DNA of 16,551 nucleotides from a virus (taxonomy: Duplodnaviria; Heunggongvirae; Uroviricota; Caudoviricetes). Position 1 is the first letter of the stretch; each line of letters begins with the position of its first letter. This document shows positions 1 to 16,551 of this stretch, in pieces. A model generated the notes under the pieces. That model made no database searches. It was given only the letters and a program-made list of their open reading frames with translations, and was not told the origin of the DNA. Position numbers and translations under genes: made by a program. The stretch lies in the IMG/VR virus record IMGVR_UViG_2802429241_000002. One strand, given 5' to 3'.

Positions 1-61
1 CGCTGGCCGACTGCTCCGCACGGGTGCATTCATTCAGTGTTTCCTGCCGGATATCCTGCAT
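1..61 (-). CDS. L: minor tail protein L, N-terminal 20 codons only (gene continues beyond window start)
   Basis: Minus-strand reading from ATG at 61..59 gives MQDIRQETLNECTRAEQSAS, matching the lambda gpL N-terminus as I remember it; ATGA overlap with the stop of the upstream M gene. Confidence 0.75.
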   Translation of the reverse strand, partial: MQDIRQETLNECTRAEQSAS

Positions 62-390
62 CAGTTCACCACCTGTTCAAACTCTGCGCTGAACTCAACA
101 CGCAGCATACTGACCCGCGACGACCATTTTGCGCAGGTCACCTTTATCTGCCGCCACTCATAAGGCGGCGTCCACAGAAAGGCTTTCCAGCCCCCGTGCT
201 CTTCCAGAAACGACTCCAGTACCGTGGCCTCCTCACGGGGGACAGAAAGCGTCACGCTGTACGTTTTCAGGTTGGCATTCAGCCCGGCAGGCGCTCGCTG
301 GGAACAGCCATCACCAAAGCGTACCTTTCTTACAGAAGGGGCCGAAGCCACATCCATACCGGGTTTCACTTTCCAGCGGAAGGTTTTCAT
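61..390 (-). CDS. M: minor tail protein M
   Basis: 109-aa ORF (MKTFRWKVKPGMDVAS...EFEQVVN) is near-identical to lambda gpM from memory; start overlaps the tape-measure stop (ATGA). Confidence 0.95.
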   Translation of the reverse strand: MKTFRWKVKPGMDVASAPSVRKVRFGDGCSQRAPAGLNANLKTYSVTLSVPREEATVLESFLEEHGGWKAFLWTPPYEWRQIKVTCAKWSSRVSMLRVEFSAEFEQVVN

Positions 391-3300
391 CGTCCACCTC
401 CGGAGAACAGACCACCATCACGGGACTGCTGTTGCATAAAGTCCGCTGCTGCTTTTTTCCCGAGGTCATAAACCACCTTCAGGGCAGCCGGACCTATCTG
501 CCCGTTCGTGCCATCGTTATTGATCTCAATGTTGTACTGCGGGGCAAACATCGCCATACCTGAACCACCAATATCCGCCACAACCCCCAGCTTACCATCA
601 GCACCACGACGCAGAGGCAGAATGGCTTCAGGCCCAGCTTCCCCCATCACACCTGCACCTTTTGCAAAAGCAAAAAACGTCGGACGGTTAACCACCGTGC
701 CACTGTAGCGACTCAAATCAGCAGACTGATAAACACCACCATCAGCATTGGGCGTCACACTGGCAGTTGCTGCACTCCCCCAGCCAAACGCCGAACCAAT
801 CCCCTTAACTGCCTGCATCATGGACATCTGGGCCATGATTTTTGCCAGATCAGAAAGGAGCGAGGCGGTAAAAGATTTGAAGTTCAGTTTTCCGGTGGTA
901 CAGAAGGTTGCCAGTGCATTACCTGCACTGTTAAATGCCGCTGTAAGCATCTGCTCAGCAGTGCCTGCCGCATTATCCGCATCTGCCGTGAAATTCTGAA
1001 ACGCCCGCATGGCACCGTTTTTCCAGTTACCCTGAGCAATTTCAAGCTGTTGCCAGTAACGGCGATTCTCATTCAGTTGTCGGTTCAGGCTCTCCGTCAG
1101 CGCCTGCTCGGCCTTTCTGTAGTCATCCGTGTTATATGTCCCTTTCTGCTCACTATCCCGCCTCAACTGCTCCAGCTGTTGCTGGTATTTCTGGCGAAGA
1201 CTCAGTTGTACCTGATATCGCTGCCGCTGCTGATCACCCATACCCACCGTGGCGATATCCAGGTCATGTTGCTGACGCTGAGCGCGCTCTTCTTCAGCCA
1301 GTTGACTGGTCAGCTGAATTGTTTTTTTCTTCAGCTCGTTGAGTGCCGTCTGTTTCTGAAGCTCCTGCTGTTTTACATCCAGCAGCGTCAATGCCTGAAT
1401 CAGTTCATCTTTACGGGCAAGCACACTCTTTTCATCTGCCGTCAGTTTTTTCCCGTCCAGGTCGCTGATGCGCTGCTGCAGAGCCAGAAGCTGTTTATGC
1501 GCTTCTGTCATCCTGTCAGTGGCAATGCCTGCTGACTGTCTTGCAGCAGCAATCTGCCCTTCCACCTGTGCCTGTTGCTGACTGTACTGCAGCAATAACC
1601 GGGTGGCCTCATCATTACGGGTTTCGCGTGTTTTTTTCTTACCGGATGCCAGGGCTTTCTCGTAACGTTCATTTTCACGTTGTATCGCCGCATCCCTGAC
1701 AGCCTGATCGGCGTACTGCATGGCATTAATACGCGCAATTTCACGCTGATGCCGTGCTGCTTCCGTTTCATTCATCCGGTTCAGTGCAGCATTTTCAGCA
1801 TTACGGCGTTTCTGTTGCTCCTGATAATTCCGCTCTGCCTGCTCTTTTGCATCCTGCAAATCCTTCTGGCGTTTTTTCTCCTGAAGATCGTTAAGACGCT
1901 GCTGATCGTATTCAACCTGAGAAGATGATGCCGTCCAGGGGAGTCTTTTCGCCCGCGACACTTTCTCCTGTAAAGCGGCAATCTGTTCATCCAGCGAGTC
2001 TTCACGACCAATATTCATGGCCGCATCCCAGAACTGCTTCCACCAGTCAGACAAAGTTTGCAGCGTGCTACCCAGCGCATTGAGGTTATTATCAATATCC
2101 GCAGTACGACGATCGGTTTCCTCTGCCAGTGCAGACATGGCTATCCGTGCAGCATCACTGGACCGCCCCTGCTCCCCAAGGACGCGTATCTGCTCAAGCT
2201 GAGTGGCAGTAAGAAAATGCAGCTCATTGTCCAGAGCCTTCGCGGCATTTACAGGATCATCCTTCAGCCGCTTAAACTGACTTATGGTATCGCTGACCGA
2301 CTGGCCAACCGATCGCTCCATCTGTGCGGCAGCTCTCGCCACCATACCGATATCGTTTCCACGAAATGCACCACTCCCCACCACCTGAGCCAGCGCACCG
2401 GCTGCAGCATGTTGCGTGATACCATTCCCGGAAATAGCACGACTGAGCGTCCACAGTTGCCCGGCAGTGACTCCGGCATAATGCCCCGTCAGCGACAACT
2501 GGCGGTTAAATTCTTCCCCCTCCTTCTGACCGTCATACCAGGCTTTACCCAGACCATAGACGGCCGCGGCAATACCGCCAATAACCCCGCCCAGCATCAT
2601 GCCTTTCGGTGACATCAGTGTGTCTATCCATCCGGCACGGTTAGCCAGCGTTATCCCGGATCCCCTCAGCGCACCTAAATTGCCGCGGGCCAGTTCACCT
2701 ATCAGAACGCCTATCTCCTGGCGGGCCGCTGCACTTTTCAGACCCAACGAATGCGTGGCTTTTCCTGCCTGCTCCATTTTGCGGATATACACTTCTGCAG
2801 CACTGCTTACCCCCAGTTGGGCAGCCTTAGCACGAAGCAACTCAGAAGAAGAAAGATTCTGGCGGGTTGCCTGCTCTTTAAGCTGACGGATAAACGCCAC
2901 TTTCTGTCGGGTAGACTCTTCCTCAGCCTGTGTAAGAACACGGGTTTTCGCAGTAACCTCAGAAATCAGCGCCAGATAATCCTGCTGACCAATCCCGCCA
3001 CTGTTTCTGGCCTGTCGGATCTGCTGCTGAATACGCTGTAATTCCTGCAGCCCCGCACTGGCCTGGTTCACACTGTCAATCTGACGATAAAACGCAGCAG
3101 CCGCTTTATCCTGAGCCTCCGCCAGAGCCATGGCCTGCGCCTGTTCCTCGCGCATTTTCTGGCTCAGCGCCTCCATGCGCTGGCGGGTTTTCTCCACCTC
3201 GCGGGCCATGCGTTCATGAGCCTGTGCGTTCTTCTCCACCGTCTGCGCATGGACGGATGCGGCTGTTGCAGCCGAAGAAGCCGCCTGCGTTGTCTGCCGG

Positions 3301-3461
3301 GCGGCCTGAGTCTGACGCTCCATAAAACGCTGCATACGGGCAGAAGACCGTTCTGCATCGCTGGCTGCACCATTCAGAAGGTTTTTGATACGGGGGATTT
3401 CATTTTTAAACTCTGCCGCATCAATCCCCAAATCAATGACCAGGTTGGCTATCTGGTCCAT
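387..3461 (-). CDS. H: tail tape measure protein (gpH-like), ~1024 aa
   Basis: Long Ala/Gln-rich coiled-coil ORF; C-terminus ...INNDGTNGQIGPAALKVVYDLGKKAAADFMQQQSRDGGLFSGGGR matches the lambda gpH C-terminus; N-terminus MDQIANLVIDLGIDAAEF resembles gpH MAEPVGDLVVDLSLDAARF. Start placed at ATG 3461 (GGAGG 8 nt upstream) rather than the track's 3491. Confidence 0.9.
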   Translation of the reverse strand: MDQIANLVIDLGIDAAEFKNEIPRIKNLLNGAASDAERSSARMQRFMERQTQAARQTTQAASSAATAASVHAQTVEKNAQAHERMAREVEKTRQRMEALSQKMREEQAQAMALAEAQDKAAAAFYRQIDSVNQASAGLQELQRIQQQIRQARNSGGIGQQDYLALISEVTAKTRVLTQAEEESTRQKVAFIRQLKEQATRQNLSSSELLRAKAAQLGVSSAAEVYIRKMEQAGKATHSLGLKSAAARQEIGVLIGELARGNLGALRGSGITLANRAGWIDTLMSPKGMMLGGVIGGIAAAVYGLGKAWYDGQKEGEEFNRQLSLTGHYAGVTAGQLWTLSRAISGNGITQHAAAGALAQVVGSGAFRGNDIGMVARAAAQMERSVGQSVSDTISQFKRLKDDPVNAAKALDNELHFLTATQLEQIRVLGEQGRSSDAARIAMSALAEETDRRTADIDNNLNALGSTLQTLSDWWKQFWDAAMNIGREDSLDEQIAALQEKVSRAKRLPWTASSSQVEYDQQRLNDLQEKKRQKDLQDAKEQAERNYQEQQKRRNAENAALNRMNETEAARHQREIARINAMQYADQAVRDAAIQRENERYEKALASGKKKTRETRNDEATRLLLQYSQQQAQVEGQIAAARQSAGIATDRMTEAHKQLLALQQRISDLDGKKLTADEKSVLARKDELIQALTLLDVKQQELQKQTALNELKKKTIQLTSQLAEEERAQRQQHDLDIATVGMGDQQRQRYQVQLSLRQKYQQQLEQLRRDSEQKGTYNTDDYRKAEQALTESLNRQLNENRRYWQQLEIAQGNWKNGAMRAFQNFTADADNAAGTAEQMLTAAFNSAGNALATFCTTGKLNFKSFTASLLSDLAKIMAQMSMMQAVKGIGSAFGWGSAATASVTPNADGGVYQSADLSRYSGTVVNRPTFFAFAKGAGVMGEAGPEAILPLRRGADGKLGVVADIGGSGMAMFAPQYNIEINNDGTNGQIGPAALKVVYDLGKKAAADFMQQQSRDGGLFSGGGR

Positions 3462-3762
3462 AACGCACACCTCCGGAAATACCTTCCCCAAGATGCATCA
3501 GTTCTTCGTCCGTTCGCTCCGGTATCCCGTTCTCTTCCGGTAAAAGGCTGAAATCAGCCACCGCAGCATCACTGCTGCCGGACACCATTCTCACGATCAA
3601 TGCCTTCAGCGAGGCAAACTGCGCATCCATCCACACATCACTGAAGCTCTGCATCCGGAAATAATCGCCCCACTCACCAAGCTCAGTGGCCGACATTTCC
3701 GACAGCATCCGCCGCCAGTCTGCCCGCCGGAACTCCCGGGCAAGCCGCATGACAAACTGCAT
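3433..3762 (-). CDS. T: tail assembly chaperone T segment; reading frame entered by -1 frameshift from G (expressed as G-T fusion, not from its own ATG)
   Basis: ORF lies in the -1 frame relative to G, overlaps the G 3' end, and sits immediately upstream of the tape-measure gene, as in lambda G/GT. Confidence 0.7.
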   Translation of the reverse strand: MQFVMRLAREFRRADWRRMLSEMSATELGEWGDYFRMQSFSDVWMDAQFASLKALIVRMVSGSSDAAVADFSLLPEENGIPERTDEELMHLGEGISGGVRYGPDSQPGH

Positions 3763-4157
3763 TTCCCGCGTCAGGACTTTTCCGGCGTCAGCACCTCATG
3801 CTCATCATCCCCGGCATTATCAATGGTCCCCATACCGCTCAGCGACAGAACCATCTCCGCCCCCGCCCCCAGGGCATCATACGACCATGTTGTAATAACG
3901 GATGCGCAAAGCGTCTCTACATCCTTAGACTGATCCGCATTCCACAGTGAGCGGGAAACCAGCCAGGCATTGATATCCATCCCCATCCGCAGAAAAGCAA
4001 TCTGTCGTTCAGCCTCCGGCAGTTCTCCCTCTTCGGCATCAAACTTTGCCGTTCGCTGCTGAACAAACGCCAGATATTCAATTCTCTGCAGCCCGGACAG
4101 CTCACTGAGCACCACGGACTGCTTTTCATAATTAAACGTGCCCTGTTTCAGAAACAT
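3433..4157 (-). CDS. tail assembly chaperone G-T fusion product (predicted -1 programmed ribosomal frameshift near 3777..3783)
   Basis: G frame ends ...HEVLTPEKS*; the -1 frame is open from 4 codons upstream of the G stop and continues 110 codons to 3433. Putative slip site G_GAA_AAG (minus strand) resembles lambda's G_GGA_AAG. Confidence 0.6.
3771..4157 (-). CDS. G: tail assembly chaperone G
   Basis: MFLKQGTFNYEKQSVVLSELSGLQRIEYLA... resembles lambda gpG (MFLKTESFEHNGVTVTLSELSALQRIEHLA...). Start at ATG 4157 (alternative ATG at 4160); GGTGGAG SD just upstream. Confidence 0.85.
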   Translation of the reverse strand: MFLKQGTFNYEKQSVVLSELSGLQRIEYLAFVQQRTAKFDAEEGELPEAERQIAFLRMGMDINAWLVSRSLWNADQSKDVETLCASVITTWSYDALGAGAEMVLSLSGMGTIDNAGDDEHEVLTPEKS

Positions 4158-6001: not shown

Positions 6002-6277
6002 TTACTCAATAAAGATCATTGGCTTACCGTTAAAGCGTTCATGCCGTGTGACCGTCCATTGTTGTCCGTCATAAACAACGCGATCCCCGCGCCGTGGGCG
6101 GTATCCCGAAGAAAACACCACCAGAGAGACCGCAGGTCCGGACAGAGCATTCAGCTCTACCAGTGTTTCTCCCGGGATCACAGTCATATCGACATCATTA
6201 ATCGAGGCTGTCTTTCCCATCTTTCTGACCGTGATCGCATCCATACGCGCTGCCAGCCGGGAAAAGGGATCAGACAT
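6002..6277 (-). CDS. head-tail joining protein, gpFII-like (91 aa)
   Basis: MSDPFSRLAARMDAITVRKMGKTASI...RRGDRVVYDGQQWTVTRH resembles lambda gpFII (MADFDNLFDAAIARADETIRGYMGTSATI...RRGDTLTIGEENFWVDRV); gene order fits. Confidence 0.65.
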   Translation of the reverse strand: MSDPFSRLAARMDAITVRKMGKTASINDVDMTVIPGETLVELNALSGPAVSLVVFSSGYRPRRGDRVVYDGQQWTVTRHERFNGKPMIFIE

Positions 6278-6593
6278 TGAGTTTTACCGGCACTTCTTCT
6301 GCACTGGTTCCGGCATCTGCCCAGACAACCCCGACCAGCGGATCAGAGCCGCTGTTAGTCAGCTGAACTTTTCCGGACTTCAGATAAACCTTCTTACCCG
6401 TTTTCATATCATCCGTTTTCAGCTTAGGCAGCATAAACACACCTTCGGTCATGCCGTCGCCTGTTTCACCCTGTGGAATATCGGTCAGCGCCACCGCAAA
6501 AACATCACCCACCTGCACCAGATCTCCGCTGCTGATGGCTGCACTGGCAACAATCGCCACCGTTTTTCCTTCTTCTACAAAATTCTTTGCCAT
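6270..6593 (-). CDS. small head-associated protein of unknown function (107 aa; FI position, possibly decoration/packaging-related)
   Basis: ORF with good SD (GGAGACAGTT-ATG) at 6593, located between the capsid gene and the FII-like gene; no function assignable from sequence alone. Confidence 0.7.
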   Translation of the reverse strand: MAKNFVEEGKTVAIVASAAISSGDLVQVGDVFAVALTDIPQGETGDGMTEGVFMLPKLKTDDMKTGKKVYLKSGKVQLTNSGSDPLVGVVWADAGTSAEEVPVKLNV

Positions 6594-6636: not shown

Positions 6637-6656
6637 AAAAAAAGCCCTTACGGGCC
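6637..6656 (-). terminator. intrinsic terminator-like hairpin downstream of the major capsid gene (minus strand: GGCCC-GUAA-GGGCU followed by U7)
   Basis: Short GC stem with GNRA-type loop and T7 tract read from the sequence, 25 nt after the capsid stop codon. Confidence 0.5.
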
Positions 6657-6679: not shown

Positions 6680-8638
6680 TTACGCCGTACATTTCACCAG
6701 ACCGCGGTGATCAACTGGCGCGACACCGGCGTCAATACGCACTTTCGTTGTCACGCCATCCACACTGAAGCCCTCCATCTGATCAACATATGGCGTATCC
6801 ACACCGTTGAGATAAGCCACTTCAATCGTATCGGAGCCTTTTGACGCAGCCAGGTAGAAGGTGGTCTGGCTGTTATCATCAAGACGAGGCTCTGCAATAA
6901 CGGTCGCAAAATCTTTCACCGGGTTAATAATACCGGCGTTAATGTCAGCCCCCTTGACACTTGAGGAGCGAATGACCTGGTTAGCAACAGACTCCATCGC
7001 CGTCGGTACCAGTACGAACGCAGGACGAATATTCAGATGACGCTCCCCCTCTTTCTGAACACGCATCAACTGGCGGGCTTTATCCAGCGATGCCACGTCC
7101 ATTGCAGCGCTCTCCAGTACGTTTGCATGTTTCGCTTTATCGAACAGACTTACATTATCTGTGGAGATTTTCGGGTTAGACGTCAGAATGGCATAAACCA
7201 GATCGGCAATAGTGGATTTCGCCGCACGGCCCAGCTTCATCGGGACATCGGTCAGCATATTCAGATCATCATTGATAATGGCCTGACGGGTGATACTGAA
7301 CAGCTCGCCATAGGTCGCCAGTGCAATAGTGGCCTGTTTATCTCCGGTGGTGACGTATTTATATTCCGCCCCTTCACGCACCTGGCGCAGAGCACTGAAG
7401 CCCCCCATACCCACACGATGGGCAATTTTAAAATCAGACAACTGACCTTTCCGCGTCCACTGTTCGTAAGTTTCAGGAGCATCTTCCCAGCCCTGCAGAA
7501 TGGCTTTGTTCGCAACATCCAACAAAATATTACCGAAGTCAGACGTACTGTGTGTGAACGCCGCACCAACCATCTGCATCGGATTATAACCGGAAACCCC
7601 AATACCCCGTTCAGTCAGTGACATACGGGCATATTCACGCAGGGTCATCCCGTTGTAGACATTATCACGTTCGGTTTTTTCAAATCCGGCACGCGCCATC
7701 AGCGCCTGGCGGATCCCGTCCCCCACAAAATTACCGTTACCGGCATAAATATGAGCCGGGGTATTTTTATTGGATGGCGTGGACTCGCGCCCCATCTCGT
7801 TCAACAGCTTTTCGCGGGCCTGCTCCAGCGAACATTCAGGATCGGCAAGACACTGAGCCTGCAGCGTCTGATAACGCCCGCCAAACATGGCAAACAGATC
7901 ATTAATACCGTTTACACGCGCTTTTTGCTCTGCCAGTACCTGCGCACGGATACTGTTTTCATCCACCACGGGTGCTGCTGCCTGCACTGGCGTCCGGGAG
8001 GCTTCAGGTTCATTATCCTGTACGCGTGGAGCACTGTTGCGTGGCGGAGTAATCATGTTTCGAATGGATTCCGGCATCTTTTTAAATTCCTCTGTACGTT
8101 TTGACTGAATACATGCCATTGCCTTAACGGCTGGCGTCACCTGATCAGCAAATCCATGTGCCAGACATTCGGCACCGGACATCCAGGTCTCATCCGCCAG
8201 CATGGCAGCAATTTCATCGGTGGTTTTCCCGGTTTTCTGTGCATAAGCGGGTAACAGAACCGCCTCAACTTTATCAAGCAGGTCGGCATAGGTGCGCATG
8301 TCCTCCGCATCACCGCCCGTAAAGCCAAATGGTTTATGAATCATCATGAAGGTGTTTTCCGGCATAATGACCGGGTTTCCCACCATCGCAATGACCGACG
8401 CCATTGACGCCGCCACACCGTCGACATAAACGGTAATGGACGCACCATGTGTTTTCAGTGCATTAAAAATGGCGATGCCTTCAAAGACATCGCCACCCGG
8501 TGAATTGATATGGAGATTAATGTGGGTGATATCGCCCAGTGCACTCAGATCACTGATAAACTGCTTCGCTGTAACACCCCAGAAACCAATCTCGTCATAA
8601 ATATAAATATCCGCGTCACTCTGGTGACCAGCCTGCAT
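6680..8638 (-). CDS. prohead protease (ClpP/S14-like) - scaffold - major capsid protein fusion (~652 aa)
   Basis: N-terminal region contains a ClpP-like motif (INSPGGDVFEGIAIFNALK...VDGVAASMASVIAMVGN, Ser in AASM); central coiled-coil segment; large C-terminal domain typical of capsid proteins. Start placed at ATG 8638 because the track's upstream extension overlaps the portal gene by ~250 nt; SD at 8638 is weak. Confidence 0.8.
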   Translation of the reverse strand: MQAGHQSDADIYIYDEIGFWGVTAKQFISDLSALGDITHINLHINSPGGDVFEGIAIFNALKTHGASITVYVDGVAASMASVIAMVGNPVIMPENTFMMIHKPFGFTGGDAEDMRTYADLLDKVEAVLLPAYAQKTGKTTDEIAAMLADETWMSGAECLAHGFADQVTPAVKAMACIQSKRTEEFKKMPESIRNMITPPRNSAPRVQDNEPEASRTPVQAAAPVVDENSIRAQVLAEQKARVNGINDLFAMFGGRYQTLQAQCLADPECSLEQAREKLLNEMGRESTPSNKNTPAHIYAGNGNFVGDGIRQALMARAGFEKTERDNVYNGMTLREYARMSLTERGIGVSGYNPMQMVGAAFTHSTSDFGNILLDVANKAILQGWEDAPETYEQWTRKGQLSDFKIAHRVGMGGFSALRQVREGAEYKYVTTGDKQATIALATYGELFSITRQAIINDDLNMLTDVPMKLGRAAKSTIADLVYAILTSNPKISTDNVSLFDKAKHANVLESAAMDVASLDKARQLMRVQKEGERHLNIRPAFVLVPTAMESVANQVIRSSSVKGADINAGIINPVKDFATVIAEPRLDDNSQTTFYLAASKGSDTIEVAYLNGVDTPYVDQMEGFSVDGVTTKVRIDAGVAPVDHRGLVKCTA

Positions 8639-8651
8639 CCTGAACCAGGAA

Positions 8652-10160
8652 TTATTCTTCGGACTGGTCGTCGGTGTGCTGCGGCTCCTGTCGTTTCGTT
8701 GCGGCACTGCTGCCTCCTTTATCACTGGCCGGATCGGTATCAAATACCAGATCCAGCTTGCGGTTTTCATCAATTTCGGCCTTGCGCCGACGTTTGACAT
8801 CATCCGGATTACGACCACCTGCACGTACCCAGTCTGATTCTGTCGCCGCTCCACCACGAATCTGAATTTTCCAGGCCTCAGCCTCCTTAACAGGGTCAAT
8901 CCACGGCATCACCGGTCCGGAATACACCGCGGTATACAGTGAAGAACGGTCAAGATCGCGGGGTAGCCTGATAACACCGGATGCCACAGCCTGTTTCAGC
9001 CAGGCACGATACATCGGGCGGGTGACGGCACCAATAAACCAGTCCTGCAGGATCAGGTAGCCATCAGTAGACTCAACCAGTTCCTGACGCTGGGCGCTGT
9101 AAGTGCCGTTATAGTTGCGTGCTGTACTGGAAAAACTCAGACGACTGCCCGCCGCCACGGCACGCAACTGACCATTACGAAAAGTTTCAAGGTTAGGATT
9201 GGGGCGATCCGACTTCACCATTCCGATTTCTTCGCCGGGTTTCAGATCGTCGTAAATAATGCCTGGCTGAATGGTAAGCTCGCGTTCATTCTCCTTGCAG
9301 CCATTACCATCCGGTTCATAGCTCTGTCCGTCGCCTTTCCGGATGTACATCCCCAGAGCAGCGGCGATCCTTGCTGCAGTCAGCTCAGAATCTTCATACT
9401 CTTTCAGGGCACTGAGGCGGATCAGTACACCGGACAATAAAGACGTCCCGCGCATCTGGTGCAGACGGCGAACAAATTTAAGATGCAGCATTCGCTCTGC
9501 ATCCACTTCTTTGGTTTCCATCTGCCGTCCGGATACAGGACGGCTTTTATACACCAGATATTTTTCGGGACGCCCCCAGTCATCAACAAACACGCCCTGA
9601 TTCAGCCTGTTGCTCTCATCACTGGTCATGGGAATAAAGTCCGGCTCGAGCGCCTCCAGCCAGAAATGAACACCGGCAGAAGGCGTCAGGCTGTTTATGC
9701 GCCCGGAAACCATCTGGGCAAACACCTCACCATCGCGCAGCCAGGTACGCAGCATCAGACGTTCCAGCATCGGGCGGGTAAACTGCCCGGTGACTTCCGG
9801 ACTGACAGACCATTCACTCCATCGGGTGCGTATCTCCGCTGCCAGGTCACGGGCAATGGCCCCATTGCGTAATACCGGATGTGGCTCGACAATAATCCCG
9901 TTTTTCCCCACCACCCGTTCTTCCAGCTTGTCAAATACACCAATAACCAGATCGTGGTTGTTATCAAGGTAACGGGCCTGCTCACGTAACGACACGGCCC
10001 CGTACTGGCTTAACTGGTCGGCAGTTCGGTTTTCCCGCCGGGCTTTGTGTGTCCGCGTCGTTTTTACGGCCTCATAAGCCTGGATCACCGCACGGGAACG
10101 CAGCCTTGCCGCTTTCCATCCTGGTGAAAAAACGCCAATCACATCATCAAGAATAGCCAT
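8652..10160 (-). CDS. portal protein (~502 aa)
   Basis: Size and position (between gpW-like and prohead protease genes, downstream of terminase). Start at ATG 10160 (MAILDDVIG...) with GAGG SD and ATGA overlap with the W stop. Confidence 0.8.
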   Translation of the reverse strand: MAILDDVIGVFSPGWKAARLRSRAVIQAYEAVKTTRTHKARRENRTADQLSQYGAVSLREQARYLDNNHDLVIGVFDKLEERVVGKNGIIVEPHPVLRNGAIARDLAAEIRTRWSEWSVSPEVTGQFTRPMLERLMLRTWLRDGEVFAQMVSGRINSLTPSAGVHFWLEALEPDFIPMTSDESNRLNQGVFVDDWGRPEKYLVYKSRPVSGRQMETKEVDAERMLHLKFVRRLHQMRGTSLLSGVLIRLSALKEYEDSELTAARIAAALGMYIRKGDGQSYEPDGNGCKENERELTIQPGIIYDDLKPGEEIGMVKSDRPNPNLETFRNGQLRAVAAGSRLSFSSTARNYNGTYSAQRQELVESTDGYLILQDWFIGAVTRPMYRAWLKQAVASGVIRLPRDLDRSSLYTAVYSGPVMPWIDPVKEAEAWKIQIRGGAATESDWVRAGGRNPDDVKRRRKAEIDENRKLDLVFDTDPASDKGGSSAATKRQEPQHTDDQSEE

Positions 10161-10372
10161 CAGAACCTCGCCAGCCGGTACCCGGGATGCCCCCGTCGTC
10201 GTGTAATCAGAGCCGCAAGGCGGCGCTCCCACTCCTGCCGTCCCTGCCGGATCTCAGATAAGTTTTCCATGGTCATCTGCTGACCATTAAAGGTGACGGA
10301 TTTTCCGTCCAGCACCGCCATTTCAGCTTCCGTATAACGCTGAATCATGGCTTCGATATCATTCTGGTTCAT
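10160..10372 (-). CDS. W: head-tail joining / head completion protein, gpW-like (70 aa)
   Basis: MNQNDIEAMIQRYTEAEMAVLDGKSVTFNGQQMTMENLSEI...RRRGHPGY resembles lambda gpW (...RRRGPAGFYV). GGAGG SD 6 nt upstream of ATG 10372; ATGA overlap with terminase stop. Confidence 0.8.
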   Translation of the reverse strand: MNQNDIEAMIQRYTEAEMAVLDGKSVTFNGQQMTMENLSEIRQGRQEWERRLAALITRRRGHPGYRLARF

Positions 10373-12471
10373 AACCATCCTCCGGAAGTCAGCCAGGGGT
10401 TAACATCGTCAGTTACTGTTTTCTTCCGTTTTTGTTTTTTAACAGGCGTGGATACCGGTTCCGGTGAGGGTGACGGTTCGGTACTGTCCGGGACACACTC
10501 CAGCCAGGTTTCCCGGCTCGCCCACTCCGGTGTATCCGGCCAGCGGATCTTTTCGTATCCATGCAGAATGACCAGAGCCTCGGCATACACCATCAGGTCA
10601 AAAGCTTCGTTGGCACCGCGACCCGGCTTACTCCATTTCCCGTCACTGCTCCGCTCTTCATACGTCAGTTCGTCGTAAAACCAGCTCCCCAGCCAGTCAG
10701 GGAAATGCACATAGCCGGGACCTGGAGAGTCACGCCATAACGCGTTATTCACCCGGTCTTTCAGGGCATCCGTCTGAAGAAGCCAGAGCGGCACATCACC
10801 TGCGGCCTGCGCCCGTCGGCCCGTTCGTCCGGTGTTATCAGGGAATGTACGGGTGATCAGTTTTGCGCGCCGGATGCTGTCGCCCTTAAACAGGTAAATA
10901 CGTTTACCAAGGCCATCACGACGGCAACGACGCCAGAATTTATAGGCATTATCAGTGACCCCGTCTTCACCGCCGGAGTCCACCGCCATTGCCATCAGTC
11001 GCATTTGTTGAGAAGGATCGGAGGCCAGCGGCCAGCTTTTATGAAAAACATCCGTCAGCAGGACATCCCAGTCTTCCGGATAGCTGGCCGGATCAATTCG
11101 CTGGCTCTCCCCGTCGCTGTCACCGCGCAATGACTGCGTGATGTTGTAACGATCAATAATCCAGCGTTCGCCACGGCTGCCATAGCCCGTTACCTGAACC
11201 ACAAAACGGCGATGACGTCCCGCCTGCACATCCACTGTCGCCACAAGGAAATTAACGCCATCCGGCACACTGCGGGAAGGAACTGGCTCTGCCCGCTGCT
11301 CAAGCAGTTCACTTTTTCGTTGCTCCATGCTGGCACGGGGAAGATAAGGTAATCCCCAGTCGGTATTGATAACCGTCTTGAGTGTTTCTTCACTTCCGGT
11401 TGTCTCGTATTCCTGTTCTGCAGTAAGCAGTTTGTAAACGAGTTGCGAGAGTGTCTGGTAAGCAGCTGCCGGACCCTCCATCCAGAATGACGCAATACGT
11501 GAGCGTCGGGGATCACCATAACGACTGCCATCCGCATTGATGGATTCACCATCCCGCAACCAGACCCCACGTCCGTTCAGCTCACGTTTTTGTTCAGGCA
11601 TAATCCGTCCTGAACAGGAAGGACACTGAATATAAGCCGCCTCACTTGCCAGCACGGGATCGGCAATATCACGGAAACCAGCAACCACATCGCCGCAGGG
11701 CTGAAAATACTCACCACAGTGTGGACAGGGCCAGTACCAGCGACGGCGATCACCACGGTTATAGAGCGACAGTATCCCCGTGGTTGGTGGAGCCTCATGC
11801 GGTGAAGTCCGTCGCCATTTCACATCCTTCACATCCCTGCCGGGGGAACTCTCCACCAGCGTCATACCACTGGACATAAATGTGGTGGTACGTTTTGAGG
11901 CAAGAGAGAAGGCATCCCCCTCGCCATCAATATCTTCCGGAAAACGGTCATAATCCGTCAGCGCCACGCATTTATAATCTGATGAGGACATGATATTGAC
12001 TGACGGCCAGCCGATTTTCAGGTAGTTGCCAGCAAGGAATGTTCTGTCATAAACGTTGTTGTCATTTTTGTTCGGACTCAGGCGACTGACCACTTCCGGG
12101 CTGACGCGAAACGTCCTGGCAAGTCGTTTTTTGGAGTGTTCGCGGGCTTTTTCCTCCGTCATCTGAATGATCAGCATATCCGCAGGATCGCAAATCACGT
12201 TGTAAATCACCCAGCCGTCAATCAGGCCGATAGTCTTGCCGGTTCGTGCCGGGCCAACAAATATCACTGCGTCGTATTCACGCGAGGCCAGGCAGTTCAT
12301 CGGCTCAATAACATACGGTGCCACCAGCGGATCCCACGGGACTGAGTTCCCGGCCCCCATGGGCACCCGCATATATTGAGCAACGGCATCAGCAACCCGC
12401 ATTCGTCTCGGTGCGCGAAGGATATAACCTGAATCGGTTCGTGCTGCCTTTGCGGTTTCCTGATTCAGCAT
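10369..12471 (-). CDS. A: terminase large subunit (gpA family), 700 aa
   Basis: Walker A-like VGPARTGKT near the N-terminus, zinc-ribbon-like CPHCGEYF...CPSCSGRI, gene order Nu1-A-W as in lambda; GGAGGAG SD. Confidence 0.9.
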   Translation of the reverse strand: MLNQETAKAARTDSGYILRAPRRMRVADAVAQYMRVPMGAGNSVPWDPLVAPYVIEPMNCLASREYDAVIFVGPARTGKTIGLIDGWVIYNVICDPADMLIIQMTEEKAREHSKKRLARTFRVSPEVVSRLSPNKNDNNVYDRTFLAGNYLKIGWPSVNIMSSSDYKCVALTDYDRFPEDIDGEGDAFSLASKRTTTFMSSGMTLVESSPGRDVKDVKWRRTSPHEAPPTTGILSLYNRGDRRRWYWPCPHCGEYFQPCGDVVAGFRDIADPVLASEAAYIQCPSCSGRIMPEQKRELNGRGVWLRDGESINADGSRYGDPRRSRIASFWMEGPAAAYQTLSQLVYKLLTAEQEYETTGSEETLKTVINTDWGLPYLPRASMEQRKSELLEQRAEPVPSRSVPDGVNFLVATVDVQAGRHRRFVVQVTGYGSRGERWIIDRYNITQSLRGDSDGESQRIDPASYPEDWDVLLTDVFHKSWPLASDPSQQMRLMAMAVDSGGEDGVTDNAYKFWRRCRRDGLGKRIYLFKGDSIRRAKLITRTFPDNTGRTGRRAQAAGDVPLWLLQTDALKDRVNNALWRDSPGPGYVHFPDWLGSWFYDELTYEERSSDGKWSKPGRGANEAFDLMVYAEALVILHGYEKIRWPDTPEWASRETWLECVPDSTEPSPSPEPVSTPVKKQKRKKTVTDDVNPWLTSGGWL

Positions 12472-12965
12472 TACTCCTCCTGCTGTAATTCCTCCTCATC
12501 ATCCGCACCTGCTTCGGTCACCCGCAGGGCTATCTGATCACGCAGATCATCAATAATGGACTGAACACGGCTCACAGCGGCAGGCTGCAGACCGCAGTCA
12601 CGTTCCAGAATATCCGGTAATGTCTCCAGCACCTGCACGACCGCTTTTGCCCAGATGGCAAACTCCCGTCTGACATCACTGGCCGGAATGAGTTGCGCCG
12701 TTTCCTGTTCGAACTTAAGACGCTCACGTTCAGACTGATACCAGGCTTTGCGCTCATGCGCGTCCATTTCGCCTTCTGCAACCGGCGGTGGTAATGCCAG
12801 AAATGCCGACACAATATCAACCACCCGATAAAGCTTGAGGTTGCTTTCATGCCCCCCTGCAACGGGTAGATTTTGCAGCCTTGCCGCAGCAGTCTGGCGA
12901 TGTACACCTGACAGTGCTGCCAGTTGACTGATATTCAGCGTCAGATTTTTTAACTCTCGATCCAT
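12471..12965 (-). CDS. Nu1: terminase small subunit (Nu1-like DNA-binding subunit), 164 aa
   Basis: N-terminal HTH-like segment (LNISQLAALSGVHRQTAAARL), acidic C-terminus, immediately upstream of and overlapping the large terminase; GGAG SD. Confidence 0.8.
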   Translation of the reverse strand: MDRELKNLTLNISQLAALSGVHRQTAAARLQNLPVAGGHESNLKLYRVVDIVSAFLALPPPVAEGEMDAHERKAWYQSERERLKFEQETAQLIPASDVRREFAIWAKAVVQVLETLPDILERDCGLQPAAVSRVQSIIDDLRDQIALRVTEAGADDEEELQQEE

Positions 12966-13099
12966 ACCCGCTCCGGAATGTTTTAAACATGCATCTTGCG
13001 AACAACTTTAGATAAATGGTGTTAGTGATGAACAAAAAACTATCAAAATCGACACCGGAAAAATAAAATTTCTTGAATATCAATTCATTACACTTGTGG

Positions 13100-13200
13100 T
13101 GATGACGAATGAAATTTCAAAAACTAGCCTTTTTCCGCGACGCTCCCGCCCCGTGGCAGGCCCCCCCTCCGGGAGGACCCGTCAGCCTGACAGCTCTGAC
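13100..13200 (-). other. candidate cos site (cosQ-cosN-cosB); putative cosN around 13140..13151
   Basis: Minus-strand sequence GACGGGTCCTCCCGGAGGGGGGGCCTGCCACG-GGGCGGGAGCGT-CGCGGAAAAAGG resembles my recollection of the lambda cos junction (GACGGGTCCTTTCCGGTGATCCGACAGGTTACG-GGGCGGCGACCT-CGCGGGTTTTCG); located upstream of Nu1 with an AT-rich cosB-like stretch between. Confidence 0.5.
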
Positions 13201-13604
13201 GAACGTCTGATACAACGCCCTGCATGAATGGCATCGGAATAATCCAGAAAGGCATAGCATCGTGCCCACAAGAATCTGTGTAAGTGTCCTGTTTCTTCCA
13301 TCCCCGCACAGGACTGGCGAGCATGAGGGGCAAACCCGCGAACCATAAACGCGCTAAAAACCCTGTGTGCATCGTTTTTGATTATTCCCGCACACTCGCG
13401 CAGAAGGAGTTCCCCGTCGGGCTACGGTCTCTGTTAATGGGGGAATACGGCGACGATACGGCGCACAGAAATAGATCAGAAATCTATTGCCCACAATCCA
13501 CATAAAGGCAATACATTGCATGAGCACAGGTAATCGCCTATGCTCATGTATTGGCATTCTTTTGCCGCCGGCGAATCTTCAGCGGATTATCCTTGGCCGG
13601 TTTT

Positions 13605-14069
13605 TTATCTGAGGCATTGCTCGCTAATATATAGCTGTGCCCCCTCCAGTTGTTTTTGCATCAATATCAGCCGCTCTCTGAGGGTGAAATAATCCCGTTC
13701 AGCGGTGTCTGCCAGTCGGGGGGAGGCTGCATTATCCACGCCGGAGGCGGTGGTGGCTTCACGCACTGACTGACAGACTGCTTTGATGTGCAACCGACGA
13801 CGACCAGCGGCAACATCATCACGCAGAGCATCATTTTCAGCTTTCGCATCAGCTAACTCCTTCGTGTATTTAGCATCGAGTGCATCAGCAGCACGCTGGC
13901 GCTGCTGCATGTCAGTAATGGTGGCGGTCACCTGCTTCAGCTCACTGACTTTTTTATCACGCTGTTCTTTGTAGGCGATGGCGTTATCACGGTAATGATT
14001 AACAGCCCATGACAGGCAGACGATGATGCAGATAGCCAGAGCATAAATAATCGCGGCAACTCTGCTCAC
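13605..14069 (-). CDS. Rz: i-spanin Rz
   Basis: ...[33 protein letters not shown]...[38 protein letters not shown]... is near-identical to lambda Rz. Probable GTG start at 14069 (MSRVAAII), overlapping the endolysin stop as GTGA; the track's start at 14084 is a TTG codon. Confidence 0.9.
13667..13849 (-). CDS. Rz1: o-spanin Rz1 (lipoprotein), nested in the +1 frame of Rz
   Basis: [60 protein letters not shown] is near-identical to lambda Rz1, with lipobox (VVGC) and proline-rich region. Confidence 0.9.
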
Positions 14070-14599
14070 TGCTCTATCCCCCAACAGGCTAATACGCTTT
14101 CCTGGTCACGACGAATAACCTGACCGTAACAATTATTTGAACGAATGCGGCAATCACGTCCACCGTCCTTTATCCACCAGCGAATCGCCTCGCATGCGCC
14201 TTTACGATCACCGGCATTCAGCCGCTTATAAAACGTCGACGGAAAACACTTACCGGGGCCAATGTTATAGGGACAGAATGACGCGATACCGGCTTTCTGT
14301 GGCTCGGTCAGTGGAACTTTTATATTGCGCTCCACCCATGCCAGCGCCTTATCCCGCTCAATGGCGTTAACCTGGGCGCATTTTTCCTTCGACAGTTTCA
14401 TTCCCGGAATAACAGGTTTACCGTCCACCATCGTTGCTCCCCGACAGATGGTCCATATGCCGGAGCCATCGCGGTATGCAGTGGTGTGATTCCCCTCTTT
14501 TTCATCCAGAAACTGATCGAGAATGTCAGGGGCAGGAGCACTGGCGGCAATCAGAGCCAGAACAGCAGCCGACAGGCTGTATCTGATTTTTACGTTCAT
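14066..14599 (-). CDS. R: endolysin (T4-lysozyme-like fold) with N-terminal SAR/signal-anchor domain
   Basis: Catalytic spacing E-8aa-D-5aa-T ([16 protein letters not shown]); weakly hydrophobic Ala/Ser-rich N-terminus ([18 protein letters not shown]); resembles the phage 21/Stx-phage lysozyme type. No recognisable SD upstream. Confidence 0.9.
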
Positions 14600-14712
14600 G
14601 GATATTTATCAGGATTTATCGGCTTCAAATCCCCGGATATGTTAAATCTTACCTCGCCAGTGATGGGCACTGGCGGGAGGAGGATGTCAATCTGATAAAC
14701 ACAGAGGTGACT

Positions 14713-14973
14713 ATGGATTACACAAATCTACCAAAACAAACTTTTGCTGATTTAATCGCACTCAGGCAAGCAGTCGTAGCTCTAATCAACTTGTTGCCGG
14801 AGAAGGAAAAGGAATTAGTTAAAGCGCTTCTTAACAGAACTGCCGCCGATTTTTCATCATATCCACTGACAGATGACCTTGCGGACCTTCCTGAATTAAT
14901 TGCAGCGTCCGCCATTAAGCTTACTGAAGAGATTTACCCTCCTCAAAAATCTTCACAAAATTCCTGCGAGTAA
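14713..14973 (+). CDS. hypothetical protein (86 aa), plus-strand moron inserted in the lysis cassette
   Basis: ATG 14713 preceded by GAGGTG SD; AT-rich with rare codons (CTA, AGG, AGA); followed by a strong intrinsic terminator on the same strand. No recognisable family. Confidence 0.6.
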   Translation: MDYTNLPKQTFADLIALRQAVVALINLLPEKEKELVKALLNRTAADFSSYPLTDDLADLPELIAASAIKLTEEIYPPQKSSQNSCE

Positions 14974-15472
14974 CTTCAATGCAATAATCGTAAAACGCCG
15001 CAAACTGCTCATCGCGGCGTTTTTTTTCATCTTCAGAAGGAATAAGCACCGACAATTTTTTATTCAGATCAGCGACGCTGCCCTCCTGTTTTTCAATGAG
15101 CGATTCAATGTCATCTTTTTCTGACCGCAATGCCGTCGGTGGCGTCTTCAGAGAACCAGTAATTCTTCCCGGTAGCTTTCCTTTGTAGGTTATCCACACA
15201 TTCTGCGCCTCTAAAATTATGGGGCGCTTTTCCGGCGACTGCTCATCCCCTTCACATAACCCGGCAGCAACATCCAGGAATACCTGTCTGATTCTCATTC
15301 TGGCTGCTGCCTCATAAAACTCCAGTGCAGCACCTTCAACACGATCCATAGTGATATCCAGCTCAAAAATCTCACCGTCAAAGCGTTCTTTGTCCTGTAA
15401 GGCTAAAGTTACCGTAACTTTATGCTCAAAATTACGGACTCCTTTCACAACCAGTTCATAGTCTTGAGTCAT
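14921..15472 (-). CDS. hypothetical acidic protein (183 aa) between holin and endolysin
   Basis: ATG 15472 lies 4 nt after the holin stop with SD (GAGGAGAG) inside the holin 3' end, suggesting translational coupling; no TM segments or recognisable motifs. Confidence 0.65.
   Translation of the reverse strand: MTQDYELVVKGVRNFEHKVTVTLALQDKERFDGEIFELDITMDRVEGAALEFYEAAARMRIRQVFLDVAAGLCEGDEQSPEKRPIILEAQNVWITYKGKLPGRITGSLKTPPTALRSEKDDIESLIEKQEGSVADLNKKLSVLIPSEDEKKRRDEQFAAFYDYCIEVTRRNFVKIFEEGKSLQ
14992..15027 (+). terminator. intrinsic terminator for the plus-strand 86-aa gene (stem CGCCGC/GCGGCG followed by T8)
   Basis: GC-rich hairpin and T8 run read directly; lies inside the coding region of the convergent 183-aa minus-strand ORF. 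Confidence 0.65.
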
Positions 15473-15476
15473 TGGA

Positions 15477-15692
15477 TTACTCTCCTCTCGCAGCCTTACG
15501 CCTGTCTTCTTTAATCTTGAAATAAAGATTTGTCAGATACGTCAGCAGGCCAAAAACCAGGCTACCCAGCACACCGATTGCAGCCCACTGTGACGGAGTT
15601 ACTTTATCGAGTAACTGCAATGCCCAGAAACCAGCATTACCCGCCGATGTGCCATAGGCAACACCTGTTGTTAACTTATCCATTGATTTCAT
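15477..15692 (-). CDS. S: class II pinholin/antiholin (phage 21 S-like), dual-start MKSMDK
   Basis: [71 protein letters not shown] closely matches phage 21 S (two TMDs, C-terminal ...[13 protein letters not shown]) with the two in-frame starts 71/68. Confidence 0.92.
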
Positions 15693-15911
15693 ATCCTCAC
15701 CCCGATGTACACGGATGGTGCAATATGTTTGAAAATATCGGAGTCTACGGGGTAGTTTTTACAGCACACGTTGTTCTCAACGGCGCTAAAAAAACATACA
15801 CATTAAAAATGTGGTTAATTATTTTGAAAGAAAATCATATATTAATTAATAATACGAGAAATGTTTTCATATTTAGTGTACTGTATACGGCCATTTATAC
15901 AGGAAAAGCCT

Positions 15912-16082
15912 ATGTCAGAACGTAAAGACTCAAAATCACGCCGTAATTATCTCGTTAAATGTTCCTGCCCAAACTGCACCCAAGAGTCAGAACACAGTTT
16001 TTCAAGAGTACAAAAAGGTGCCCTTTTGATCTGCCCTCATTGCAACAAAGTATTCCAGACAAATCTTAAAGCTGTAGCCTGA
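15912..16082 (+). CDS. small zinc-ribbon protein (56 aa; CxCxxC ... CxxC), function unknown
   Basis: ATG 15912 with AGGA SD; MSERKDSKSRRNYLVKCSCPNCTQESEHSFSRVQKGALLICPHCNKVFQTNLKAVA; AT-rich upstream region. Possibly related to small prophage-encoded putative zinc-binding proteins of E. coli (from memory, unverified). Confidence 0.55.
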   Translation: MSERKDSKSRRNYLVKCSCPNCTQESEHSFSRVQKGALLICPHCNKVFQTNLKAVA

Positions 16083-16142
16083 TTGATTTTATTCGCAACA
16101 AGTATTTTTTTATATTTTAATAATATATTTAAAGCAGATAAT

Positions 16143-16165
16143 AAAAAACCCGCCTGAGCGGGTTT
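16143..16165. terminator. bidirectional intrinsic terminator (AAAAAACCCGC-CUGA-GCGGGUUU)
   Basis: Stem flanked by an A-run on one side and T-run on the other; the minus-strand reading gives stem + UUUUUUAUUAU (strong); the plus-strand T tract is weaker. Confidence 0.6.
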
Positions 16166-16446
16166 AATATTGTGGTGCTTTTTGTGAGAGTCATCCACTT
16201 ACGCACTTTGTTTTGCTATGCCAGCAGTTAGCTTCTGCTGTAAAACTATTCATGCAGCAAACCTGCACTTCACCACAATGGTTAGCATACTTTTCCTGAT
16301 TAAGTTATTACCAAATATGCTGGCCATTGTTTCATGTATTGGACCTCCTTACTCTTTATTAAAGAGATCCAATATTCACCACTCTGTCTGTATCTCCACT
16401 CAGGCATCAGCCTTCTTCGTTATCGTATACAGACAAACTATGAATT

Positions 16447-16551
16447 TTAATCATTAATGATGACATTTGCTGCTGCAGGACCTTTAGCACCACTCTCTAC
16501 AGAGAAGGTAACCTTTTGACCTTCAAATAAGGTTCGATAATTATCATTCTG
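16447..16551 (-). CDS. cold-shock protein (CspA family), C-terminal 34 codons (gene continues beyond window end)
   Basis: Minus-strand translation ...[34 protein letters not shown] matches the conserved C-terminal half of CspA-family proteins (CspA ...[37 protein letters not shown]). Confidence 0.85.

Follow-up and report, generated by a model that had tools for sequence, protein, structure and literature searches.

A Gifsy-2-type protease-scaffold-capsid fusion gene in a lambdoid prophage of Escherichia, with a candidate internal translation start

In this study, we examine a fused head gene and its surroundings in a window of 16,551 nucleotides from a tailed-phage record of IMG/VR (IMGVR_UViG_2802429241_000002). 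We hold with high confidence, as one joint reading, that the gene at 6680..8707 on the minus strand is the known Gifsy-2-type "tripartite capsid gene", that the whole window belongs to an Escherichia prophage of the lambdoid Gifsy-2/mEp460/cdtI type, of which it is the late (lysis-head-tail) region, and that the full-length product is most likely translated from a GTG at 8707 and not from an ATG at 8638. The main finding is already known: the fused gene was published for Gifsy-2 in 2010, and it has its own NCBIfam model and a PGAP product name. The initial annotation of this DNA thus rediscovered a published and well-annotated gene type, which is present in about 40% of complete E. coli genomes. 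Here we document the domain content of the gene, its family membership, and the conservation of the fused open reading frame (ORF) and of its start sites. In addition, the start-site comparison raises a question that we regard as evenly balanced, namely that the tripartite gene may be a nested pair, in which a Shine-Dalgarno (SD) sequence at 8092-8088 and an ATG at 8077-8075 would give a 465-aa product devoid of the protease beside the full-length one.

The minus-strand frame is uninterrupted down to its stop codon at 6680-6682; it encodes 675 aa (73.5 kDa) from GTG 8707 and 652 aa when counted from ATG 8638. In NZ_AP029000, PGAP annotates exactly the 2028-nt CDS from GTG 8707, and its product name is given to this gene in nearly identical E. 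coli chromosomes. The initial annotation had described a single ORF of about 650 aa in which a linker connects a ClpP-like protease to a capsid domain, and the Pfam search that it proposed finds both enzymatic and structural parts in this one frame: CLP_protease at residues 23-168 (3.9e-36) and Phage_capsid_4 at residues 354-649 (2.4e-54). The C-terminal half therefore does hold a capsid match, and the possibility raised earlier that no capsid fold would be found there falls away. The protein also matches NCBIfam NF045540 (ClpP-like prohead protease/major capsid protein fusion protein; scaf_prot_MCP1) with 986 bits for a cutoff of 475, and does so end to end, since residues 9-651 of the form starting at ATG 8638 cover profile positions 2-651 of 652.

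The protease domain (8135..8572, minus strand) is of the ClpP-like S14 type and further matches NF045542, "head maturation protease, ClpP-related", with 215 bits. It contains a VAASMAS motif, within which lies the AASM noted earlier (Ser codon 8405-8407), and an MMIHKPF motif (His codon 8336-8338). The Ser of AASM and the His of IHKP are invariant and align with the Ser and His of the ClpP structures 1y7o and 6hwm, while the third position of the triad is an invariant Glu in ADETWM, aligned with the catalytic Asp of ClpP. The alignment of homologues delimits a linker or scaffold-like region of roughly 165 residues (7580..8077, minus strand), made of a conserved MPExhKNh start, a variable spacer rich in Pro, Ala and Gln, a conserved segment and an AGNGNxVGD motif. 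Effantin et al. in 2010 reportedly reached a scaffold role for this middle part by inference. In the paper on Pseudomonas phage MD8, it was assigned by inference as well (PMC8508860). The remainder of the gene (6692..7579, minus strand) encodes the major capsid protein domain of about 32 kDa, of the Phage_capsid_4/Mu gpT family. This part also matches Mu-like_gpT (3.7e-08), and a PDB profile search returns the Mu-GpT-domain capsid proteins 8rkx and 8rkc (1.1e-10) and 9jod (1.8e-7), so that by profile similarity its fold is the HK97 one. The fold assignment rests on such sequence profiles because the AlphaFold2 model of the 675-aa protein, built on an alignment of 20 sequences all at least 75% identical, is unusable (pLDDT 36, pTM 0.22).

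This architecture suggests a route of assembly by analogy with HK97, lambda and the work on Gifsy-2. The single polypeptide would comprise an N-terminal ClpP-like serine protease, a scaffold-like linker and a C-terminal HK97-fold capsid protein; procapsid assembly from the precursor would take place on the portal, the protease would then cut away the protease and scaffold parts, and the capsid domain of about 32 kDa would form a shell decorated by the cement protein encoded downstream. Judged by the domain limits, the maturation cut would fall roughly between the AGNGN motif and residue ~350 of the 652-aa form. For Gifsy-2, the original description, as cited by later papers, reportedly covers the fused tripartite capsid gene, the proteolytic release of a ~32-kDa capsid domain and a decorated T=7 capsid (Effantin et al. 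2010, Virology 402:355).

The fusion is found far beyond this prophage. It is carried by 2135 of 5426 complete E. coli genomes, about 40%, and 2001 complete E. coli genomes hold at least 80% of the 2.5-kb region. Relatives are encoded at 193 genome loci across Gammaproteobacteria, 80 of which were kept and nearly all of which match the query almost end to end. DNA identity reaches 96-98% in phages PhiR40_1, phi458, mEp460, Ayreon and cdtI, with about 98% for mEp460 and phi458, and protein identity is 70% with Gifsy-2 and 58% with MD8. These data bear on the reading that the long ORF is an artefact, in which two genes, one for a protease and one for a capsid protein, would have been joined through a frameshift or an assembly error. 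That indels do produce spurious fusions here is shown by chimeric 1159-aa ORFs in the databases, in which the portal is fused as well; we found nothing else in favour of an artefact. Against it, thousands of genomes have the fused frame unbroken, and so do distant taxa with identities as low as 46%; a curated family model covers the fused protein, and the Gifsy-2 literature describes the fused gene. Judged from this conservation, the artefact reading is already refuted, and we give it virtually no credence. The 1159-aa portal-protease-capsid ORFs are possible because the fusion frame is open for 64 codons upstream of GTG 8707. We considered a programmed frameshift as their origin and rejected it, since the junction positions differ among them, which points to scattered indels or errors.

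The surroundings of the gene are those expected of its type. The genes are ordered TerS-TerL-W-portal-fusion-cement-FII-like-Z-U-V-G-T-H-M, the same as in Gifsy-2, and the fusion gene lies directly 3' of a lambda-family portal gene (8652..10160, minus strand; TIGR01539, 455 bits) and 5' of a trimeric cement/decoration gene, as in Gifsy-2 and mEp460. The latter (6270..6593, minus strand) encodes a head decoration or cement protein of 107 aa (Phage_cement_2/DUF2190), the partner of this capsid type. Between the fusion and decoration genes, a terminator-like GC hairpin followed by T7 is found at 6643..6656 (minus strand), and the mEp460 record has a rho-independent terminator annotated at the equivalent place. 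A lambda/mEp213-type cos sequence (GGGCGGCGNNCT) was looked for with a regular expression and not found.

The initial annotation had placed a non-lambda head module beside M, V, U, G, the H C-terminus and Rz/Rz1, all regarded as close to lambda. Near-lambda identity is in fact restricted to M (97% at the protein level), the tip of H and Rz/Rz1 (86% and 97%); the last ~139 nt of H together with M, at positions 1-525 of the window, are 93% identical to lambda DNA. V (55%), U (53%) and G (33%) are only moderately related to their lambda counterparts, and the values for Z, T and H overall are 44%, 38% and 27%. As for the head, none of lambda C, Nu3, D, E, FI and FII was matched by BLASTP or TBLASTN, but the module is not simply non-lambda: a profile search recognises the ATPase and nuclease domains of GpA in the large terminase, and with 25% identity to lambda A and 22% to lambda B, respectively, terminase and portal are, on these profiles, distant members of lambda-type families. 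The core of the earlier proposal, a three-part gene within a mosaic lambdoid late region, is upheld by the Pfam domains and by the mixed lambda identities. For the MD8 homologue, an HHpred match of the N-terminal part to the protease region of lambda gpC was reported (Evseev et al. 2021, PMC8508860). Our own hhalign comparison of the fusion family with gpC is colinear but weak (probability 2%, E 0.023), it pairs the linker region with the C-terminal part of gpC, and we set it aside as evidence of homology for its statistical weakness. In that weak alignment, the start of lambda Nu3 does not align with ATG 8077.

The position at which translation of the full-length form begins differs between public records, ATG in the mEp460 RefSeq record and GTG in PGAP annotation, and our comparison favors the upstream of the two, which lies within the portal gene. 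This GTG (8705..8707, minus strand) is the most likely initiation codon, and the fusion gene begun there shares 56 nt with the portal 3' end. The GTG is preceded at 5 nt by the Shine-Dalgarno sequence AAAGGAGG (8713..8720, minus strand; dG of the anti-SD duplex -11.6), which is kept at the equivalent place in enterobacterial homologues of 72-74% identity. The ATG at 8636..8638 (minus strand), from which the ORF was initially taken to begin, was said to have a weak SD, and this is so (dG -2.2); it was also said to overlap the portal stop by 17 nt, which is incorrect, as the TAA lies at 8654-8652 and leaves a gap of 13 nt. A start at ATG 8638, giving the 652-aa form, does have arguments in its favor. 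This is the start annotated for mEp460, the NF045540 profile is 652 positions long and is matched at positions 2-651 by the ATG form, and an ATG occupies the equivalent codon in 38 of 78 homologues. In the other 40, however, including Gifsy-2 and MD8, this codon is no start codon (it is Ile in 28), and therefore those homologues must begin upstream. Moreover, conserved SW[FY] residues are encoded 5' of ATG 8638, in the 13 nt that a start at this ATG would leave between the two genes, and the homologues with a short N-terminus open with MKSW..., immediately before this motif. A start with a stronger SD is found upstream of the SW[FY] motif in 75/78 homologues, and 23/78 have no start codon after it. 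We thus consider a gene start at ATG 8638 improbable; this ATG is probably an internal codon, Met24 of the form initiated at GTG 8707. The two starts predict different N-termini, (M)PQRNDRS... from GTG 8707 and MQAGHQ... from ATG 8638, and an N-terminal peptide (M)PQRNDRSRSTPTTSPK would be at odds with the latter.

A second potential start lies within the gene. At the boundary between protease and linker, an ATG (8075..8077, minus strand) encodes Met188 of the 652-aa form and Met211 of the 675-aa form, and the SD-like sequence GAGGA (8088..8092, minus strand) is found 10 nt upstream. Of the 78 homologues, which are 46-99% identical, 77 keep an equivalent ATG even though the two residues before it vary freely, and an AGGA/GGAG core stands 10-11 nt upstream in all 77 that have it; these counts, like the others, are of related sequences and not of independent samples. 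SD dG is at most -5 at the internal ATG in 100% of these 77, compared with 13% of all codon positions. Codon -5 is GAG, CAG or AAG (E, Q or K) and never ends in A in 72/77, while the other five loci retain a shifted GGAG. Across the gene, the mean use of xAG is 0.43, with values of only 0.16-0.23 in Pasteurellaceae and Proteus; the codon -5 column is the only one among 28 E/Q/K columns with 100% wobble G, the next highest having 72%. The gene-wide minimum of synonymous diversity also falls on the codons just upstream of ATG 8077, with an observed/expected ratio of 0.73-0.78 in well-populated windows (mean 1.00, sd 0.06). Finally, a second fusion family, whose N-terminal part has no ClpP Pfam match, shows the pattern again: the internal Met is present in 24/25 members, the SD dG is at most -5 in 92%, and the motif persists although the residues it encodes differ (KE, EE, QE, TEL, PGV) and its codon register is shifted.

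Two readings compete to account for this pattern. If the gene is nested, translation would also initiate at ATG 8077 and would yield a putative scaffold-capsid protein of 465 aa and 50.7 kDa without protease, with (M)PESIRNMI... as its predicted N-terminus, the full-length form being a minor, protease-carrying one. Nested initiation of protease and scaffold is documented in other systems, and we give this reading, which draws on comparative sequence data, an even chance. Against it, 10-11 nt is toward the upper end of the spacings seen in E. coli, and of the two motifs the SD of GTG 8707 is the stronger. Furthermore, another conserved Met inside the protease fold (column 122) is preceded by an SD-like sequence in 83% of loci, where it derives from GGD codons, and therefore an SD and an ATG are not decisive by themselves. 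Coding constraint can indeed produce SD-like strings, as column 122 illustrates, and this is one ground for the other reading, in which only a single polyprotein is made, each capsid subunit comes with its own protease and scaffold, and the conserved AGGA-N10-ATG reflects a constraint at the protein level, a translational pause or another RNA-level signal in place of initiation. We take this to be a serious contender of slightly less than even probability. It leaves unexplained the invariant wobble G despite a changing amino acid, the location of the synonymous-rate minimum exactly at that site, and the survival of the motif with other residues and in a shifted register in the second family.

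No split version, with a protease separate from a scaffold-capsid protein starting at the homologous Met, was found among the IMG/VR relatives. We dismissed a dnaX-like slippery site, for which TTTAAAAAG ahead of ATG 8077 had been a candidate, as this sequence is not conserved in homologues. Plausible internal ATG and SD sites are also seen in mixed-type relatives, in few sequences only. A search of the literature other than Effantin et al. 2010 found nothing specific on an internal start in the tripartite gene.

Gifsy-2 (STM1033 region) shares the architecture: its gene has the ClpP-like protease, a middle part of ~200 aa and the capsid protein, it is flanked by a lambda-type portal upstream and a cement protein downstream, and its annotated start overlaps the portal 3' end, there by 86 nt. 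It differs in the sequence of its N-terminal extension, in lacking an ATG equivalent to 8638, and in its lysis and distal tail genes, as expected for mosaic phages. Phages mEp460, phi458, Ayreon, cdtI, Tritos and PhiR40_1 share the head and tail genes at 95-98% DNA identity; unlike the window, the mEp460-type phages lack the lambda-like patch at 1-525 (start of L, M and tip of H), and their match begins at 406. The product gp5 of MD8 (Evseev et al. 2021, PMC8508860) comes from a three-part gene as well, which shares the internal ATG and SD and whose start, preceded by a GGAG-type SD, lies within the portal end, but it belongs to another host and has a longer Pro/Ala-rich spacer. Protease and scaffold are also encoded in one frame in lambda C/Nu3, Mu I/Z, HSV-1 UL26/UL26.5 and HFTV1 gp17/gp17.5, and if the internal start is real, the present gene would resemble them further in making a minor protease form and an N-terminally truncated in-frame form. 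In those systems, however, the capsid gene is separate whereas here it is fused, and the lambda protease is of the S49 type. In HK97, the scaffold (delta domain) of gp5 is N-terminal to the HK97-fold capsid protein and is removed by the phage protease, which would make gp5 the direct analogue of the putative 465-aa internal product; yet the HK97 protease (gp4) is a separate gene of another family, and chainmail crosslinks take the place of a cement protein.

If the nested reading is true, the ratio of protease to capsid protein would be set by start-site choice, as in lambda C/Nu3 and herpesvirus UL26/UL26.5, which would be a simple answer to how a fused gene avoids packing one protease per subunit. 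The scaffold-capsid part might then be the ancestral translation unit, to which proteases were joined upstream later, as the second fusion family without a ClpP Pfam match would suggest. In that case, the main precursor of the capsid in a very common type of prophage head would be absent from current annotations.

All the long ORFs of the window lie on its minus strand, and the fusion frame stays open from 8899 to a stop at 6680; 652 aa are encoded from the ATG at 8638. In this form, Pfam CLP_protease matches residues 23-168 (3.9e-36) and Phage_capsid_4 matches residues 354-649 (2.4e-54). In alignments with solved ClpP structures, the Ser of the AASM motif and the His of IHKP match the catalytic residues, and an invariant Glu takes the place of the ClpP Asp. 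A profile search with the C-terminal two-thirds, built from 26 diverse homologues, matched solved Mu-GpT-domain capsid proteins (8rkx and 8rkc, 1.1e-10; 9jod, 1.8e-7). Thus, the proposal of the initial annotation that a protease and a capsid domain are joined in one unsplit ORF is upheld. AlphaFold2 returned an unusable model of the fusion protein (pLDDT 36), and hhalign of the fusion family against lambda gpC gave a weak match. Many singleton database ORFs, 1135-1159 aa long, join portal, protease and capsid (P0006, P0008, P0012, P0043 and P0071, homologous to window 6680-10160). Such chimeras are possible because the fusion frame stays open for 64 codons upstream of an in-frame GTG at 8707; their junctions fall at differing positions, and we regard them as independent, scattered indels or errors.

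The fusion ORF is real and was correctly identified, but its gene type was already known, is curated and is very common. The protein scores 986 bits (cutoff 475) on NCBIfam NF045540, named [quoted passage not shown], which PGAP uses in near-identical E. coli chromosomes. The region is found in 2135 of 5426 complete E. coli genomes (2001 of these at a coverage of at least 80%), and the DNA of the head-tail block is 95-98% identical to that of phages PhiR40_1, phi458, mEp460, Ayreon and cdtI. According to the papers citing it, the three-part fused gene of Gifsy-2 (70% protein identity) was described in 2010 (Effantin et al. 2010), and the same three-part gene was described in Pseudomonas phage MD8 (58% protein identity; Evseev et al. 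2021, PMC8508860). In bacterial assemblies sampled at one genome per species, relatives are encoded at 193 loci. We kept 80 of these, and nearly all of them align with the query over almost its full length (46-99% identity); they come from Enterobacterales, Pasteurellaceae, Shewanella, Pseudomonas and others.

On the minus strand, the fusion ORF (6680-8707 or 6680-8638) is preceded by a P21-type holin (15477-15692), a DUF1327 protein of 183 aa (14921-15472), a lysozyme (14066-14599), Rz with embedded Rz1 (13614-14069), a DUF1441-type small terminase (12471-12965), a GpA-type large terminase (10369-12471), a small W-like gene (10160-10372) and a lambda-family portal (8652-10160). It is followed by a Phage_cement_2 decoration protein (6270-6593), a Gifsy-2-type head-tail joining protein (6002-6277) and, below 6002, homologues of Z, U, V, G, T, H and M. 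G and T, the tail chaperone genes at 3771-4157 and 3433-3762, are in a -1 relationship, as expected for a G-T frameshift product, and near the end of G (3771-3800, minus strand) we read CCGGAAAAG, as against the canonical slippery heptamer GGGAAAG of lambda.

The region is mosaic, as usual for lambdoid phages. The tail and spanins had been called near-lambda, which is true of the spanins (Rz1 97% and Rz 86% aa identity) and of a short recombinant patch, window 1-525, which holds the start of L (first 20 aa, 100%), the whole of M (97% aa) and ~139 nt from the 3' end of H, and is 93% identical in nucleotides to lambda 12965-13489. The description does not extend to the rest of the tail, in which V (55%), U (53%), Z (44%), T (38%), G (33%) and H (27% overall, ~27% outside the patch) are far more distant. 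The large terminase and the portal share 25% and 22% aa identity with lambda A and B, and lambda C, Nu3, D, E, FI and FII have no BLAST-level match in the window. Since the edge of the patch is sharp and mEp460-type phages match the window from position 406 onward only, a recombination junction is placed in the 3' end of the tape-measure gene. The lysis cassette (13605-15692) is mosaic too, combining the P21-type holin, the DUF1327 ORF (for whose homologue the annotation of the E. coli chromosome NZ_AP029000 gives only 315 nt), a Phage_lysozyme endolysin without similarity to lambda R, and lambda-like Rz/Rz1; in the comparison genome, the lysis region also contains an additional, partial Rz pseudogene. 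At the holin-proximal end (15000-16551), GC content is 0.38-0.45, down from ~0.52-0.56, an indication that the module upstream of the lysis genes may be of another origin. In the gap that separates Rz from the small terminase gene, window 13349-13466 is 81% identical in nucleotides to lambda 46867-46981 (between bor and lambdap78); the two small ORFs there, 13124-13372 and 13354-13557, have no Pfam match, and a pattern search found no lambda-type cos sequence.

Several details of the initial annotation are wrong, among them a 17-nt overlap of ATG 8638 with the portal stop: this ATG starts 13 nt past the portal TAA (8654-8652). Its SD is indeed weak (dG -2.2), while GTG 8707 is preceded by AAAGGAGG and a 5-nt spacer (dG -11.6). 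Annotated starts differ, PGAP choosing GTG 8707 (2028 nt) and mEp460 RefSeq ATG 8638. Across 78 homologous loci, a motif SW[FY]x[IM][KQR]A is conserved 5' of the 8638-equivalent codon, which is no start codon in 40 of them (Ile in 28), Gifsy-2 and MD8 included. No start codon occurs between this motif and the conserved YDEIG strand in 23 of the 78, a start with a stronger SD lies upstream of the motif in 75, and those homologues whose N-terminus is short start with MKSW. The AAAGGAGG-N5-GTG arrangement is kept in enterobacterial relatives of 72-74% identity, the residues after GTG being variable. From these comparisons, translation very probably starts at GTG 8707, giving 675 aa (73.5 kDa) and a 56-nt overlap with the portal gene.

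A second start may lie within the gene. Met188 of the 652-aa form (ATG 8077-8075, minus strand), at the end of the protease domain, is encoded by ATG in 77 of 78 homologues, although the two positions in front of it are highly variable. An AGGA or GGAG core stands 10-11 nt upstream in all 77 (GAGGA, 8092-8088, in the window), a long spacing that speaks against initiation here. The SD duplex energy is at or below -5 in 100% of the 77, vs 13% of all codon positions. The codon with the first two core bases is Glu, Gln or Lys, always as GAG, CAG or AAG, in 72 of 77 loci. Over the whole gene, G-ending codons average 43% for these residues, and in Pasteurellaceae and Proteus no more than 16-23%; at the other five loci a GGAG is kept in a shifted position, where other amino acids are encoded. 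In 54 sequences below 90% identity, this column alone among 28 E/Q/K-dominated ones has 100% wobble G (next highest, 72%). Sliding synonymous diversity (gene-wide mean 1.00, sd 0.06) is lowest, for the gene as a whole, on the codons immediately before the internal ATG, the ratio there being 0.73-0.78 where windows are well populated and as low as 0.47 where they are sparse. These five comparative lines point to an internal ribosome-binding site at ATG 8077; the compared sequences are phylogenetically related, however, and another conserved Met, within the protease fold, likewise has an SD-like sequence upstream, made by GGD codons. Three codons upstream of the SD, the AAA Lys codon of QSKR (8099-8101, minus strand; alignment column 188, 78 sequences) deviates most strongly in the other direction: where Lys or Gln is encoded, the codon ends in A in 98% of cases, which suggests that an A-rich leader may also be under selection.

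The pattern is replicated in a second fusion family, represented by Ralstonia phage YO178_1, whose linker and capsid part are homologous and whose N-terminal part has no ClpP Pfam match. The Met matching ATG 8077 is conserved in 24 of 25 members, and no other conserved Met column carries an SD signal (here 92% at or below -5), the motif being kept under KE, EE, QE, TEL or PGV residues. In-frame nested starts are the rule for the protease/scaffold genes of lambda, HSV-1 and the archaeal virus HFTV1, in which Ribo-seq demonstrated it. The simplest reading would be a second product of 465 aa (50.7 kDa) with scaffold and capsid and without protease, to which we give about an even chance.

Judging from the families involved, the precursor(s) would assemble together on the portal to form a procapsid, the ClpP-like domain would then degrade the protease and scaffold portions, and the ~32-kDa capsid domain left would expand and be bound by the Phage_cement_2 protein. 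Directly after the fusion gene, 24 nt past its stop and before the decoration gene, comes a terminator-like GC hairpin with a T7 run (6656-6643, minus strand), which in mEp460 is annotated as a rho-independent terminator lying within the late operon; it would likely be read through under Q antitermination. The finding itself is of low interest; the exception is that the gene may contain a nested start, a possibility open to test, by which 8075-8092 may open an unannotated nested scaffold-capsid gene.
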